The notes under the pieces were generated by a model. It made no database searches and had not been told where the DNA came from. It saw only the letters and a list, made by a program, of their open reading frames with translations. Position numbers and translations under genes: made by a program. Of a stretch of DNA of 64,000 nt, positions 3,350 through 59,943 are shown piece by piece (the stretch's first letter is position 1; each line of letters begins with the position of its first letter). The stretch comes from a virus: IMG/VR virus record IMGVR_UViG_3300042402_004628, positions 6,831 through 70,830 of that record. One strand, 5' to 3'.

Positions 3350-4525
3350 TTAAATGTAATTAATAATCTTTTTAAATCTATTAATCGCCTCGTTAAGTTT
3401 CTCATCTTCTTCGTAAACTTTACCTTCAGCACCAGCTCTCATTTTCATAAAAGAACCCTCTTCTTTAACTTCTTCCTGACCACCCTCTTCCATTGGCTTA
3501 TCTTCACCTTCAGCAAAAGTACCGTCTTCTCTTACAGCGCCCGATTCAATATCATCCATACTTGGTACAGCGTATTTGTTAGTCTCTTGTTCTTCGTAAT
3601 CTTTTATCATAGCTTCAATCTCATCAACACCATCTTGAGCGTTTTTGGTGAAACCTGTTAGTCTGCTATAAGCATTACTCAACCACTGTTTAACTTTTCC
3701 GAACATTTCTTCAACACCCTCAAAAACTTTCGAACCATCAATCTTTAATTGGCCTTTAACCTTTGAGGCTACTTTAGAGTTTTCTAAAATTTGTTCAAGA
3801 ACTTTTCTAGTGTTCTCGTTAACTTTTGTTAACGCAGTCTCAAACGCATCTTTATATGATGTTGTTAATTTTTCAGATTCCTGGATTATTTCAACCAACA
3901 TCTCATCTATTGAAATTTTTAGTTTTTCGGCACCTTGGGTCTGACCTTTAAATGCATCCATAACCTCTGGAACCAAAGCGCTTTTTTGTGTTTCCAAATC
4001 AGCTATTGATTCTTTATAAGTTTTTAACGCCTCATCTAATTGAGTTTGAATTGTTTTTAATTCAGCTATTTTTTGGTTAATTGTATTTTCCATATTTTCA
4101 TTTATATTTTTTTTATCGTCATTGGTTTTAACACCAATCTTGGTGGTTTTACCCCAAACTGATGTTCTTATTTTACCCTGTTTGTTTTTTAATGTCACCT
4201 CAACTTTTCCACTCGGCGTTTTAGCCCCACTTGAAACTGAAACTATTTCTTCACCACTGGTAATTATATCACCCTTTTTTAAGTATTGGGCTTCTTTTCG
4301 ATCAACACCTTCCTGTAAACTTTTTTCATCTTTATCAATACCCATGGCAACTCTAAAATCATTATAATCGTAAGCCAAGTCGGTTGCATATCTGTAAACG
4401 GCTATATCAATTTTACCGTCTGGGTATTTACCCCAGCAATACACCCATTTCTCACCACCCATTTCAAATGGCGTTTCATCTCTGTATGGTTTGTAATATT
4501 CAACAACATCCATAGTACTTCTCAT
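3350..4525 (-). CDS. coiled-coil protein (possible scaffold or structural role)
   Basis: 391 aa; long heptad-like K/E-rich central region; no enzymatic motif. Confidence 0.5.
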   Translation of the reverse strand: MRSTMDVVEYYKPYRDETPFEMGGEKWVYCWGKYPDGKIDIAVYRYATDLAYDYNDFRVAMGIDKDEKSLQEGVDRKEAQYLKKGDIITSGEEIVSVSSGAKTPSGKVEVTLKNKQGKIRTSVWGKTTKIGVKTNDDKKNINENMENTINQKIAELKTIQTQLDEALKTYKESIADLETQKSALVPEVMDAFKGQTQGAEKLKISIDEMLVEIIQESEKLTTSYKDAFETALTKVNENTRKVLEQILENSKVASKVKGQLKIDGSKVFEGVEEMFGKVKQWLSNAYSRLTGFTKNAQDGVDEIEAMIKDYEEQETNKYAVPSMDDIESGAVREDGTFAEGEDKPMEEGGQEEVKEEGSFMKMRAGAEGKVYEEDEKLNEAINRFKKIINYI

Positions 4526-12453: not shown

Positions 12454-13137
12454 TTATATTCCAACGGTTGGTGAGTCCATGTTCTCACTTAAACCATAAT
12501 GTTTCTCAACCAAAGTTTCAAAGTAATTTAAAAGTCCTTCTTTACCAATACCACTTTCTTTGGCTTTCGCAATGAAGTCATCAGCACTAGCACCAATTCC
12601 ACCTTGAATCCAGTCCACATCAGCAGCTGTGATTATTTTTTCATTGATTGGTTCCTCACTCATTCTATTTAAAAAACTATTTAATTTTCCATTACTATAA
12701 GTTAAACCAAGTTCTTTGGTTAACTTTTCAAGTACTCTAACCACTTGAGTTTTATATGGGTCTGAATAAGCTCTAACAAAAGATCCAGAGCCACGATTAA
12801 ACATGAAACCGTATATTCTTTGATCTATTTGACTAATCACATATTTTTTCTTCTCTTCTGGTTCTGTTGGTATTGACCCAGTATATTTTTGGTCTGACTC
12901 AACAAAATCGGTTACCAGTTTATTAAAAGCTTCCACAAATTCTTTTGCTTTTGTTGGATTTTCTTGCCAAGAATCATTACGAGCACTATTATTAATTGAT
13001 AAACCTTTAATTATTGGTTCCATACGTCCAAAGCCATCATCAATTATTTTAACGGAATCAACGAACTCGTTTAGATTCTCATTAAGGCCCATCATCTGGC
13101 GTATTCTTAAAACTTCTTCATTTAAGGTATTATTCAT
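12454..13137 (-). CDS. hypothetical protein; shared N-terminal leader family
   Basis: 'MNNTLNEEVLRIRQMMGLNE' leader. Confidence 0.6.
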   Translation of the reverse strand: MNNTLNEEVLRIRQMMGLNENLNEFVDSVKIIDDGFGRMEPIIKGLSINNSARNDSWQENPTKAKEFVEAFNKLVTDFVESDQKYTGSIPTEPEEKKKYVISQIDQRIYGFMFNRGSGSFVRAYSDPYKTQVVRVLEKLTKELGLTYSNGKLNSFLNRMSEEPINEKIITAADVDWIQGGIGASADDFIAKAKESGIGKEGLLNYFETLVEKHYGLSENMDSPTVGI

Positions 13138-13190: not shown

Positions 13191-13243
13191 CCCCAGAAAT
13201 TTTTTGAGAAAACGATTTGAAAATAAAACAAGGGTCACTTTTT
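13191..13243. repeat. left copy of a ~50-bp direct repeat flanking gene 13217-13840
   Basis: CCCCAGAAATTTTTTGA.AAAA.GATT...ACAAGGGTC..TTTT shared with 13853-13903. Confidence 0.7.
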
Positions 13244-13840
13244 AGTTTATGGTTTTTTTATTACTTTTGTTTTATGATATTACAGAACACAAATACCGAG
13301 GATAAACTTTCATATTGCAAGGAAGCATCGGATGTACAAGAACCAGCGTTTGTTGAGTTCATAAACGGGTTGAATGGATTGGTTACATTGAAGATTAATC
13401 CAGATAAGGAATTTGATCCATACACACACGATTTGGTTGTGAATGGAGCCCCAGGAGATCTTAAGACACAAGACACACCATTCTTTAAATCTGAGACGCT
13501 TTACGATATCGATCCTCAGTGGGCCATCACATATAACCATAAGGATTACCTGAGGTACAAGAAGAAGTACACAAGCGTTGGAAAGAACGTTGTATTGTTC
13601 TTTGACGTGACAAGAAAGGATGAGGTTAAATACGATGTGAAGACATTCCCCATGAGGGCCATCTTTTACACAAAGGCATCAGACATTGAAAAGATGATTG
13701 AGAACAAAGAGGTTCCCCTTCATGAGTACCTTAACAGAAAGAATGACGACCAGGGAAACGCAAAGAGCAGTTATGTGATCGATGTCAGACGCTTTAACAT
13801 GATATACTATTCAGGAAAAGGATTCAGGTTGAAAATCTGA
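13217..13840 (+). CDS. hypothetical protein flanked by ~50-bp direct repeats (alternative start 13274)
   Basis: ORF track 207 aa; the first ATG lies inside the upstream direct-repeat copy. Confidence 0.5.
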   Translation: MKIKQGSLFSLWFFYYFCFMILQNTNTEDKLSYCKEASDVQEPAFVEFINGLNGLVTLKINPDKEFDPYTHDLVVNGAPGDLKTQDTPFFKSETLYDIDPQWAITYNHKDYLRYKKKYTSVGKNVVLFFDVTRKDEVKYDVKTFPMRAIFYTKASDIEKMIENKEVPLHEYLNRKNDDQGNAKSSYVIDVRRFNMIYYSGKGFRLKI

Positions 13841-13852
13841 GAAAAAAAAATT

Positions 13853-13940
13853 CCCCAGAAATTTTTTGAAAAAATGATTCCCCACAGAACAAGGGTCGAT
13901 TTTCCAGAAAAAAGTACCCCCAGAAATTTTTTTCAGAAAT
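13853..13940. repeat. right copy of the direct repeat plus a partial third copy (13916-13940)
   Basis: See the left copy. Confidence 0.7.
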
Positions 13941-13957
13941 ACTTCATTTAGATATTT

Positions 13958-14030
13958 GAGCCCCCCTTTGCCCCCCATAAACGGGGGGTAGGGAGGGGGA
14001 TACGGGAGGGGGGAGGGTGTACCACCCCCT
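13958..14030. other. GC-rich structured element at the convergent A/B junction: C6/G6 hairpin followed by a G-tract run (G-quadruplex candidate)
   Basis: GAGCCCCCCTTTGCCCCCCATAAACGGGGGGTAGGGAGGGGGATACGGGAGGGGGGAGGGTGTACCACCCCC in an otherwise AT-rich window. Confidence 0.6.
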
Positions 14031-14124
14031 ATACTGCTATTTTCTTTTAATGTGCAAGTTTATATAAAACAAAGTTATCCACACTTGTGATGTGGATAAC
14101 ATTATTTGTTTATGTGGTTAAAGG

Positions 14125-20991: not shown

Positions 20992-21027
20992 TAAAAAGGG
21001 GAATTTCTTCCCCTTTCTTATCCACAA

Positions 21028-22290: not shown

Positions 22291-22325
22291 TTTCAGGGAT
22301 CTAAGTTATCCACATTGTTATAAAC

Positions 22326-45657: not shown

Positions 45658-45684
45658 AAAAAAGATAAAAAAAGTTTCAAAAAA

Positions 45685-45716
45685 ACTTGCATAATAAAAA
45701 AAGTTGTATTACATTT
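45685..45716 (+). promoter_or_regulatory. cassette promoter with no ORF downstream; leads into an inverted repeat and the GAATTCA repeat array
   Basis: CTTGCATAATAAAAAAAGTTGTATTACATTTG. Confidence 0.5.
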
Positions 45717-45735
45717 GTAGTCCTTAAGAGTTCAG

Positions 45736-45794
45736 GCCTGGGAGGCAACCCTTTCTCTCTGTTTTGTTTTTGATTTCAAAAAGTCCTCCCAGGT
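45736..45794 (+). other. long-range inverted repeat (CCTGGGAGG ... CCTCCCAGG) downstream of the ORF-less promoter
   Basis: 9-bp arms about 40 nt apart. Confidence 0.5.
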
Positions 45795-45803
45795 TCTGTT
45801 CTC

Positions 45804-45942
45804 GAATTCAAGTTTAAGTTTCTACTAGAATTCAACCCCGTATAATTTTTAGAATTCATATTGCTGGATCTTCCAGAATTCATATCCGTAACTTTTTTAG
45901 AATTCATATATAAATAAAAAAGGTGAACCCTTTTAGAATTCA
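45804..45942. repeat. array of six (T)AGAATTCA repeats (iteron-like), the first three on a 24-bp register
   Basis: GAATTCA at about 45804, 45828, 45852, 45886, 45900, 45936. Confidence 0.65.
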
Positions 45943-45957
45943 CCTTTCAGTTTTTTT
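45920..45957 (+). terminator. hairpin + T-run closing the ORF-less transcript from promoter 45685
   Basis: GGTGAACCCTTTTAGAATTCACC ... T7. Confidence 0.5.
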
Positions 45958-45967
45958 ATGTATTCAC

Positions 45968-46321: not shown

Positions 46322-46353
46322 ATTTGCACATTAAATTTTAATGTGTTATCTTT
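46322..46353 (+). promoter_or_regulatory. cassette promoter for start 46371
   Basis: Consensus. Confidence 0.6.
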
Positions 46354-46370
46354 GATTAAATTAAAATAAT

Positions 46371-46664
46371 ATGAATGCAATAAATACAGCCTATACATTG
46401 GGTTTGGTCGCCATGTATTTTATCATGGGCGGAGAATTCACATTCTGGGTGTTCATGACCTCGGTCTTGATCGCACTGATTCCACTGACAACTTCGAACC
46501 TGTTATTCGCGACCCCGATCGTGGTTCTGATCTGGTGTTTCTTTTTCACCAGCAGTACAGTTTACGATTCCGACTTCGCGTGGTTATGCATCCTGTATGC
46601 ACCCTTCCATTACACCTCATTCATATCCCATGTCATAGACGCCATCGAGGGCATTTTCGATTAA
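46371..46664 (+). CDS. multi-pass membrane protein
   Basis: Three hydrophobic helices; promoter 46322-46353. Confidence 0.5.
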   Translation: MNAINTAYTLGLVAMYFIMGGEFTFWVFMTSVLIALIPLTTSNLLFATPIVVLIWCFFFTSSTVYDSDFAWLCILYAPFHYTSFISHVIDAIEGIFD

Positions 46665-46742
46665 ATTTACGCCGTTTTTTTAATAATTTAAAAAAAATAT
46701 ATCGAAAACTGTCGAGGGGCTCAAATTTTTTTCACTTGTTCC

Positions 46743-46792
46743 TGGGTGGGAAATGGGATTTTGTGGGGGTAAGTGGGGGATTGTGGGAAATA
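46743..46792. repeat. G-run repeats (GTGGGAAAT / GTGGGGG) in the 280-bp non-coding spacer at the convergent C/D junction
   Basis: GGGTGGGAAATGGGATTTTGTGGGGGTAAGTGGGGGATTGTGGGAAAT. Confidence 0.6.
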
Positions 46793-46941
46793 GTGTAAGT
46801 AACTGATTATCAGGTAATTCAGTGACTGTCAGTGAGTTATCTGAATGCACTCATTTTCAGTCAGTTGCGGGTATGTGTGTTTCTCGGCAGAATTCACATG
46901 GGATCCTGGGCAATATAATGTAAAATGAATGCATTTTAAGG

Positions 46942-47238
46942 CTATTTAAGCGCACTTCGTGCTGCTGTGGTAGCCTCTATCATTTTATTGTATTCAATCC
47001 ACTGAAGGTATGTTTTCTCCTCGAATACTCTGGTGTATTTATTACAGTTTTTCACTCCGTACTTCCATACAACCTTCATGATATTTTCATCCTCAGCCAG
47101 AGAGCTGTACCATGTGAGTATTCTTTTTTTACCCTTCATGTATACAAACTCATCTCCTTCTTTCAGACTGTGAATTCCATTCTCAAGCTCCTGAAGAATG
47201 AATACACCTTTCATATGATTCACTCTTATTGTATTCAC
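46942..47238 (-). CDS. hypothetical protein
   Basis: ORF track 98 aa. Confidence 0.45.
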   Translation of the reverse strand: MNTIRVNHMKGVFILQELENGIHSLKEGDEFVYMKGKKRILTWYSSLAEDENIMKVVWKYGVKNCNKYTRVFEEKTYLQWIEYNKMIEATTAARSALK

Positions 47239-50406: not shown

Positions 50407-50438
50407 CAAATATATAACAGGAATTTTTAATACGCAAA
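50407..50438 (-). promoter_or_regulatory. cassette-type promoter heading the 46.9-50.4 kb part of module D
   Basis: TTTGCGTATTAAAAATTCCTGTTATATATTTG. Confidence 0.5.
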
Positions 50439-58704: not shown

Positions 58705-58921
58705 CTTCTTTTTTAATATCCTCTCGAGTTAATTCTTTTTCAGCTTGGTGCATGAAGATAATCTCTTTTGTTTGTTCATCAACTGTGCAAGCGGCAATTG
58801 GTTTATCAACTCGGTAATGATATTCTTCTCCTAGCATACCAACTTCTCCGTTGACAACTTCAAAGGCATCAAACTCCTCTGGTAGGGTGTTGAGCCACGT
58901 TTTTAATTCTCCTAAATTCAT
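58691..58921 (-). CDS. hypothetical protein
   Basis: ORF track. Confidence 0.4.
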   Translation of the reverse strand: MNLGELKTWLNTLPEEFDAFEVVNGEVGMLGEEYHYRVDKPIAACTVDEQTKEIIFMHQAEKELTREDIKKEDGKD

Positions 58922-59943
58922 ATATCGTAAGGTGTTGTACTGAATGTTATCTTCTCGATACTCAAACAGTTTGTGTTTATTATTTTTTCGATAAACATAA
59001 TAAAATCAGAAACAATATCAAATGATTTTATTTGTTTGTTCAGGTATAGGTTGTAAACCCCAATTTCTTGAAGAACATCTGATTTATTGATTATTAAATC
59101 AGTCACACCGTTGATGTTAATTGCTTTGATCATATCGTCCAAGTCCAACCAATCAACTTGCCTCGGTCTACCAGTTGTTGCACCAAACTCATTACCAACT
59201 TCTCTTATCTTCACAAACAATGGGTCTGCACCTTCAAAGTTTTTGGCACCAACATATGTGCGATAAGCTTTTGCAACGCCGTACACTCTGTCAATTTTTT
59301 GTGCTGGTATTCCATTAAGGATGGCCCCACCAATTGTGCAATGTGATGATGTAACATATGGGTAATCACCCCAATCAATATCCAACTCAAAACCCTGAGC
59401 CCCTTCGCAAAGTATACTACAACCGTCTTGCCCATTAAATAATCCGTATGTATCAACAACCATGTCGGCTAACATAGGAACATCAACAGCTCTAAGACCT
59501 TTTCGATAATACTTATCTCGGTAAGCTGGGCCATTCCCAGTTTTAGTCGTACCGATTTTACTATCCAAACTATCTTCGTGTAGATGTTGCTCGGTGATGA
59601 TGTGAACACGTTTATCAATCAATAAGTTCTCACGAACTTTAAATCCAGCTAATTCGAGTTCATCAATTTCTTGAATAAGTTTGTCTGGGTTGACCACACA
59701 ACCAAGTCCAATAATTGATTTGATTCCATACAATACACCAACTGGTATGAAATGTGTTACATATTTTTCACCATTGTGATATATCGTGTGACCAGCATTA
59801 CCACCACCATTGTAGCGCATAACATAATCATACTCATCTGGCTTCTTAGCCAGAGCGTGGGCAACCTTGCCCTTTCCAGTGTCACCCGCTTGCAGGTCAA
59901 CAATTACATCAGCTTTGCGTATCATAGTGCGTGGTTTTCCCAA
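58918..59943 (-). CDS. purA: adenylosuccinate synthetase (short form)
   Basis: 'GDTGKGK', 'RYNGGGNAGHT', 'GTTKTGNGPAYRDK', 'EGAQGFELDIDWGDYPYVTSS', 'GNEFGATTGRPRQVDWLD' align to PurA motifs; the real start may be the internal MIRKADV. Confidence 0.85.
   Translation of the reverse strand: MGKPRTMIRKADVIVDLQAGDTGKGKVAHALAKKPDEYDYVMRYNGGGNAGHTIYHNGEKYVTHFIPVGVLYGIKSIIGLGCVVNPDKLIQEIDELELAGFKVRENLLIDKRVHIITEQHLHEDSLDSKIGTTKTGNGPAYRDKYYRKGLRAVDVPMLADMVVDTYGLFNGQDGCSILCEGAQGFELDIDWGDYPYVTSSHCTIGGAILNGIPAQKIDRVYGVAKAYRTYVGAKNFEGADPLFVKIREVGNEFGATTGRPRQVDWLDLDDMIKAININGVTDLIINKSDVLQEIGVYNLYLNKQIKSFDIVSDFIMFIEKIINTNCLSIEKITFSTTPYDI

Follow-up and report, generated by a model that had tools for sequence, protein, structure and literature searches.

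A conserved non-coding element with a helically phased G-rich array at the outer end of a phage early-promoter block

The element described here lies in a stretch of phage DNA of 64,000 nt (33-41% G+C), which was analysed as a whole and is called the window below. It fills the non-coding gap at about 46.7 kb between two convergent genes, and its parts are collected in Table 1. The first-pass annotation had reported G-run repeats in a non-coding gap of about 280 bp at this place; these repeats are real, the words that it quoted are found, and the gap measures 277 nt. Near its left end the gap has a palindromic A/T-only run, the longest pure A/T run in the window, and the array of G-rich units starts about 40 nt beyond this run. 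Further conserved short blocks follow the array.

Letter-identical copies of the 97-aa protein encoded to the left of the gap are indexed in 143 blocks of a public assembly collection. Public contigs with this identical protein reach 298,824 bp and relatives lie on contigs of up to 306 kb, and therefore the window belongs to an uncultured jumbo phage (~299 kb). No relative was present in a reference phage collection. The window encodes a GP88-like protein, an L5 gp82-like protein, a UvrD-type helicase, a ParB-N/NUDIX fusion, NAPRTase, a PurA-like enzyme and tyrosinase; it contains no tRNA genes, and no Rfam family matched it at the gathering threshold. The PurA-like enzyme is a short adenylosuccinate synthetase (341 aa; 58918-59943, - strand) with neighbours encoding DHFR, an HD phosphohydrolase, NAPRTase and tyrosinase. 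Its PHROGs family is labelled as PurZ type, and the protein is much closer to cellular PurA (PDB 1e-57) than to PurZ (1e-14). Use of 2-aminoadenine in the phage DNA, which would alter the behaviour of A tracts, was rejected because the enzyme is PurA-like and not PurZ-like.

The pattern TTTG-N17-23-TAnnTTTG has 56 matches in the window against 5.7 expected, and nearly all of them are a single 32-nt sequence, TTTGCAaGTTAAATTTATTTCAyTTATCTTTG. About 50 near-identical early promoters occupy positions 14672-46354 of the window, one ahead of almost every small gene. They correspond to the -33/-7 promoter consensus of the Bacteroidetes primary sigma factor (PMC6847099), so the host is presumably a member of Bacteroidetes, judged by promoter type. 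Copies between 14672 and 32825 are on the - strand and those between 32859 and 46354 on the + strand, giving two arms of small early genes with their point of divergence at about 32.84 kb. This early-promoter block spans 32.7 kb, and its outer ends are two gaps with G runs, at 13.9 and 46.7 kb, each of which directly follows the last promoter-driven gene of one arm. A second non-coding stretch of 310 nt (45658-45967) contains an early-type promoter-like sequence (about 45686-45717) and after it six AGAATTCA repeats (45790-45945); having no ORF, it could represent a small RNA or an array of binding sites.

Table 1. Positions of the features at the 46.7-kb gap, conserved spacings within it, and the second G-run gap (window coordinates)
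Feature	Position	Strand	Remarks
Rightmost early promoter copy (TTTG-N20-TAnnTTTG)	46323..46354	+	Drives the last gene of the rightward early arm; consensus PMC6847099
Last early gene	46371..46664	+	97-aa hydrophobic (membrane-like) protein, no family match
Non-coding gap between convergent genes	46665..46941		Conserved element as a whole
A/T-only palindromic run	46675..46702		T7-AATAATTT-A8-TATAT
GGCTCAAATT box	46718..46727	+	GGCTCAAA invariant in 7/7 lineages
Array	46743..46802	+	Six 10-nt units; contains the G4 motif
Conserved block TAAs-N3-4-CTGrT..TCA	46796..46815	+	Exactly 78 nt after GGCTC (99 in one lineage)
Conserved blocks GGTATG (46870), TTTCTCGGCAG (46880), GATC (46902)	46870..46905	+	
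Weak A/T hairpin AAAATGAATGCATTTT	46922..46937	+	Position of the GC hairpin of five related lineages
Convergent 98-aa gene, last of the leftward unit	46942..47238	-	Nearest promoter match 50407-50438
Spacing GGCTC to TAAC			78 nt in 6/7 lineages; 99 nt (+21, two helical turns) in L012
Spacing TAAC to GGTATG			74 nt in all lineages; intervening stretch variable in sequence
Spacing GGTATG to TTTCTCGG			10 nt
Spacing TTTCTCGG to GATC			22 nt (21 in one lineage)
Other G-run gap	13841..14124		Outer end of the leftward early arm

Written in register, the array reads TGGGTGGGAA / ATGGGATTTT / GTGGGGGTAA / GTGGGGGATT / GTGGGAAATA / GTGTAAGTAA. G tracts alternate with A/T tracts, and GTG recurs at 46763, 46773, 46783 and 46793; the word GTGGGAAAT is found at 46746 and 46783, GTGGGGG at 46763 and 46773, and runs of five G at 46765 and 46775. 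With one DNA turn for each unit, GTG and G tract are set on the same face of the helix, and the array has the strongest G periodicity of about 10 nt in the 64 kb. Moreover, it contains a canonical intramolecular G-quadruplex (G4) motif, defined as four or more G3+ tracts with loops of 1-7 nt, at 46744-46787 on the + strand. When both strands of the window were scanned, only one other motif of this kind was found, at 13983-14017, also on the + strand; composition-preserving shuffles gave 0.11 motifs on average, with P(>=2) = 0.013.

Conservation was followed across seven lineages of one phage family, which are the group of the window itself and L014/L021, L011, L012, L025, L026 and L027, the six further lineages being recovered through homologues of the flanking proteins. 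Within the window group, ten contigs with the identical 97-aa protein have an almost identical gap. Between lineages the neighbouring 183-aa protein is 46-63% identical, and the element is kept in all seven; the first-pass annotation had named a lack of conservation in related genomes as part of what would refute its proposal. Over its whole length the gap averages 54% identity, with 64-76% for the genes to the left and 49% for the gene to the right. Its invariant blocks include the stop-codon context TAAATTTA, the A/T run in the form of T7-10 and then A6-8, GGCTCAAATT, GTG every 10 nt, TAAC..CTGrT..TCA, GGTATG, TTTCTCGGCAG and GATC; in several lineages a second copy of CTCAAnTTG stands 17-18 nt upstream of the GGCTCAAATT box. 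The distances between these blocks are exact, with the exceptions given in Table 1, whereas two neighbouring intergenic regions of the same contigs, used as control, are 284-349 and 110-152 nt long. The register of GTG relative to the downstream block is constant within 1 nt across lineages, and a conserved A/T-versus-G/C pattern runs with a period of 9.5-10 nt over 172 ungapped columns. At least two to three G tracts of the array are retained on the + strand in every lineage, with two in L025 and six in the window, and G3+ tracts outnumber C3+ tracts on this strand throughout; the four-tract G4 motif is kept in only two of the seven (the window group and L026). Further searches for relatives gave one contig in IMG/VR and none in GTDB genomes, and a single pattern scan of metagenomes gave three chance matches. 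Taken together, the comparison argues that the 46.7-kb gap is a real, conserved non-coding cis-acting site. In L012 (10929-11645 and 13130-13648) and L026 (2980-3696), genes were noted just to the right of the element that the window does not have at that position: an HNH/NUMOD homing-endonuclease gene and, in one relative of this set, a sigma-70-family gene (regions 2 and 4).

The gap does not look like a gene, a structured RNA or a promoter. Six-frame translation of the lineages gave no conserved ORF, with stops in all six frames, and a short M-x-I-S-R-Q frame was rejected, being broken in L011 and without its start codon in L012. Searching Rfam with the gap at E <= 10 returned only a 12.6-bit chance match. 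RNAalifold gave -7.8 kcal/mol with a covariation term of +0.67 on the gapped alignment, where 2 of 33 pairs have double changes, and -2.65 (+ strand) and 0.0 kcal/mol (- strand) on the ungapped alignment, with no supported structure in either; a long-range helix of TTGTCGGG and CTCGGCAG consists mainly of wobble pairs and is broken in two lineages. Taken singly, the window sequence folds on both strands a little better than shuffled sequence (z = -2.8 and -3.9). In no lineage did either strand of the gap yield an early-type promoter with a position weight matrix trained on 47 early promoters, the best score being -11.9 against a training minimum of 19.5, and a -33/-7-like reading of TTTGAGCC...TAtaTTTT on the - strand scored far below real promoters. 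Two further candidates, an inverton (inverted repeat 46844/46922) and, at the right edge, a dif-like site, were considered and dropped, neither being conserved in relatives. By these sequence criteria the gap is to be read as a cis site at the DNA level, neither gene nor structured RNA.

Exact distances, an indel of two helical turns, helical register and invariant words, in a stretch with neither ORF nor covarying helices, argue for a DNA-level protein-binding site, and we consider this general reading rather probable. A complex of protein with several DNA sites would predict both the exact distances and the register, and a terminator, a rut site or a folded RNA would need none of them. According to this model, a sequence-specific protein, either an early protein of the phage or a host factor, may bind the phased units cooperatively and bend or wrap the DNA, and this would fix the neighbouring blocks in a set three-dimensional arrangement. 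Among the three roles that the first-pass annotation had named, head-on collision control, a replication terminus and a protein-binding site, the last fits the evidence best, and a replication terminus at the 46.7-kb gap received no specific support.

The leading specific form of the protein-binding site is an origin-type site, which we put forward tentatively because the longest A/T-only run (46675-46702) adjoins a phased array of direct repeats in the same orientation (46743-46802), and this is the layout of an origin. The array would then bind an initiator beside an A/T element that melts easily, and early-arm transcription, which enters the site, could aid its opening. Against it, a gap between convergent genes is an unusual location for an origin, and the GC hairpin that five lineages have at the right edge shows that the ends of transcripts are also of importance at this place. 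No DnaA box was found in this gap at up to one mismatch, and no initiator, helicase-loader or DNA-binding gene is recognisable beside it, the flanking genes having no informative family.

The ends of transcripts lead to the first of the rival readings. The first-pass annotation had taken the 13.96- and 46.74-kb gaps as the two places where transcription converges, but the ORF map has about eight convergent junctions (3166/3350, 5977/5979, 9040/9075, 11639/11747, 13840/14125, 41712/41769, 45657/45968 and 46664/46942). Those inspected, 3166/3350, 11639/11747 and 41712/41769, have plain hairpin/T-run terminators. With an intrinsic terminator defined as a G+C-rich hairpin immediately followed by a T run (at least 5 of 8), no terminator-like site was found within 46665-46941 of the window, in agreement with the annotation, which had described both G-run gaps as free of canonical terminators; for the 13.96-kb gap this description was wrong, and even at 46.7 kb it holds for the window while five of the seven lineages carry a GC hairpin, ATGCCCC-N3-4-GGGGCAT, at the right edge. 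This hairpin overlaps the stop codon of the - strand gene. Its T4 tail on the + strand is below the terminator criterion of the scan, and in four of the five lineages the other strand has no T run; in the window lineage the same edge has only the weak A/T hairpin. A candidate leftward terminator at the left edge (small stem and T8) was rejected, as what looked like its stem folds weakly and, in several lineages, is a direct repeat.

Hence the gap might instead be an RNA-level termination zone shared by the two convergent transcription units. Rightward early transcripts would include the gap in a long 3' UTR and terminate at the hairpin next to the opposite stop codon; for leftward transcripts, which have no hairpin terminator, C-rich and G-poor RNA complementary to the G array would load Rho, halting antisense read-through into the early block. 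Rut-like RNA was sought as a stretch of about 80 nt, rich in C and poor in G, behind a gene, and leftward RNA across the array of the window has 31 C and 3 G in 78 nt. The C/G ratio of 10.3 exceeds the 99.9th percentile of the window (6.5). In addition, the excess of G3+ over C3+ tracts in every lineage, the GC hairpin with its T4 tail in five of seven, the high G-tract counts of the two lineages without it, which rank among the highest, and the absence of a terminator-like site from the gap of the window are all in line with such a zone. However, the C/G ratio ranges from 1.9 to 6.0 in the relatives, and its drop to 1.9-3.9 speaks against the zone; the tail of the hairpin has only 4 T, conserved RNA structure was not found, and rut sites would not require the invariant GTG, the exact 74- and 78-nt spacings or the +21-nt indel. 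Termination alone thus leaves the spacing unexplained, and as the explanation of the element we consider it rather unlikely, but RNA-level termination probably coexists with the function of a DNA site.

The distinguishing feature of the two G-run gaps is that they lie at the outer ends of the early block; this position and the richness in G tracts are what the two loci have in common. The 13.9-kb gap has its G4 motif at 13983-14017, runs of C6 and G6, and a canonical bidirectional hairpin/T-run terminator at 14074-14100, which is at the same time an inverted pair of perfect DnaA-box 9-mers (TTATCCACA). The loci share one 11-mer, GGGGCTCAAAT, in inverted orientation, with a marginal P of ~0.02-0.03. 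A profile HMM of the 46.7-kb element finds only itself and nothing at the 13.9-kb locus or in the relatives of that locus, and homology between the two was unsupported by MAFFT, shared words and nhmmer. At sequence level the two loci thus appear to be neither homologous nor copies of one element, and the motif comparison proposed in the first-pass annotation yielded nothing beyond the marginal 11-mer. The annotation had taken the recurrence of G-tract repeats to suggest a dedicated role and not chance. A dedicated role is supported for the 46.7-kb gap on other grounds, since seven lineages retain the element together with its 10-nt phasing and the distances inside it; the recurrence argument itself is weak, with about eight junctions, normal terminators at others and no homology between the loci.

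Several further observations concern the 13.9-kb locus. A third DnaA box with one mismatch lies at 14113 (region 14074-14121), the inverted pair is retained in the relative L017 (3708-3728), and single perfect boxes at 21018-21026 and 22306-22314 precede the -33 elements of two early promoters by 16-27 nt; the 64 kb contain five perfect boxes against an estimated 0.8 or so expected from base composition. A repeated unit of ~65 nt on the - strand, GACCC...TTTTTCAAAAAAATTTCTGGGG, occurs at 13841-13976 and 13191-13250, with two to three copies in the 13.9-kb gap and one upstream of the gene at 12454-13137. It is conserved in L017 and L020 and could be a promoter or a binding site belonging to another class; an early-like promoter at this locus was weakened as a candidate by the result of the promoter matrix. 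In the more distant L018 (306-kb contig, 3519-3869), an ordinary terminator and promoters, and no G-rich element, come after the homologue of the 173-aa gene, and the 13.9-kb element is therefore limited to a subclade.

The main alternative to an origin at the DNA level is a topological boundary, in which the gap would be a strong site for a type-II topoisomerase of the gyrase type. About 25 strong co-directional promoters would push positive supercoils to each outer end of the block, where a phased, wrappable segment would capture gyrase. Only this reading accounts for the fact that a very heavily transcribed block is marked at both of its outer ends, exactly where the two G-run gaps are placed, and the array offers ~60 bp with 10-nt phasing of G/C and A/T. 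The E. coli gyrase motif covers 130 bp and has 47-bp arms, a GC periodicity of about 10.5-10.75 bp and a central cleavage region; in that bacterium gyrase sites are concentrated behind operons with high transcription, and binding is best at the well-phased Mu SGS (PMC6379681). However, the enrichment downstream of operons is not hard-wired in the sequence (PMC6379681), and the 46.7-kb element has one clearly phased arm only, its other side being unphased. Moreover, gyrase reads shape and not an invariant GTG or a multi-block sequence, the 13.9-kb locus has a different architecture, and the motif taken from E. coli may not match the preference of a Bacteroidetes gyrase. We therefore regard a gyrase-type site as unlikely.

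Other DNA sites with phased arrays would share the evidence of phasing and spacing. Short tandem repeats of 10-11 bp are typical of type II centromeres and of sites for the terminase small subunit, so that a recognition site for packaging (pac), a centromere for partition or a platform to which a transcription regulator or roadblock binds may be envisaged, and a conserved GATC is present. On the other hand, no terminase, ParR/ParM-like or regulator gene was found nearby, and related contigs do not end at the site, which makes these functions still less probable.

A function of nucleic-acid structure was also weighed, in which non-template G tracts form a G-quadruplex, a hybrid DNA:RNA quadruplex or an R-loop and the structure stalls RNA polymerase or supplies a primer. 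Hybrid quadruplexes are reported to form with a G-rich non-template strand and to stop transcription at mitochondrial CSB II (PMC4176368). The two canonical G4 motifs of the window, both on the + strand, and the G tracts retained on that strand in every lineage would agree with such a function. However, the four-tract motif is retained in two of seven lineages only, the invariant features are GTG and the 10-nt register and not the number or length of G tracts, and the surrounding DNA, with 38% G+C, is poor for extension of an R-loop. We consider the reading very improbable, and give equally little credence to its extended form, in which two non-homologous G-tract elements would mark both ends of the early block and co-transcriptional R-loops or hybrid quadruplexes would stop host RNA polymerase and/or prime replication. 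Least probable of all is that the gap has no function of its own and is leftover intergenic sequence that looks conserved through kinship of the lineages: it is less conserved as a whole than the genes to its left, but invariant blocks at exact distances stand beside variable stretches, neighbouring intergenic regions change length freely, and the site ranks first in the window for G periodicity and A/T run length.

The 143 indexed blocks indicate that the phage occurs widely in metagenomes, and with ~50 copies of a single promoter arranged in two diverging arms its early programme can be read with unusual clarity. At the end of one arm, a conserved site whose spacing is exact to the base offers a concrete candidate for a start of replication or for insulation of the early block. 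If it proves to be an origin or an insulator, it could be a useful part for Bacteroidetes genetics.

Compared with known systems, the element would belong to a known general kind, the phased-repeat DNA sites, in which it has no described relative. It resembles mitochondrial CSB II in a cluster of non-template G tracts downstream of a promoter, where transcripts should end (PMC4176368), and co-transcriptional G-tract elements would, if real, be a phage counterpart of it; it differs from CSB II in a variable number of G tracts, separated by A/T in a strict 10-nt register. With the Mu SGS and the 130-bp gyrase motif (PMC6379681) it shares G/C phasing of ~10 bp over ~50 bp and the position downstream of heavily transcribed units. 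Unlike them, it has a single phased arm, its invariant blocks and GTG exceed the needs of shape readout, and its host would be a member of Bacteroidetes and not E. coli. As in Rho-dependent terminators, RNA of the strand without a hairpin terminator is C-rich and G-poor, although the C/G excess is weak in several lineages and the 46.7-kb element combines exact spacing with invariant blocks. To our knowledge, neither of these is among the properties of rut sites.

Iteron-type and DnaA-array origins, such as lambda ori and bacterial oriC, have an A/T-rich unwinding element next to phased short repeats of the same orientation. The 46.7-kb site, known here from its sequence, differs from them in its 10-nt G-rich units, in its place between convergent genes, and in having neither an adjacent initiator gene nor a DnaA box. 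It resembles them in an A/T-rich, meltable element beside short repeats of one orientation in helical phase, in bendable DNA, in fixed spacing and in the transcription that enters the site.
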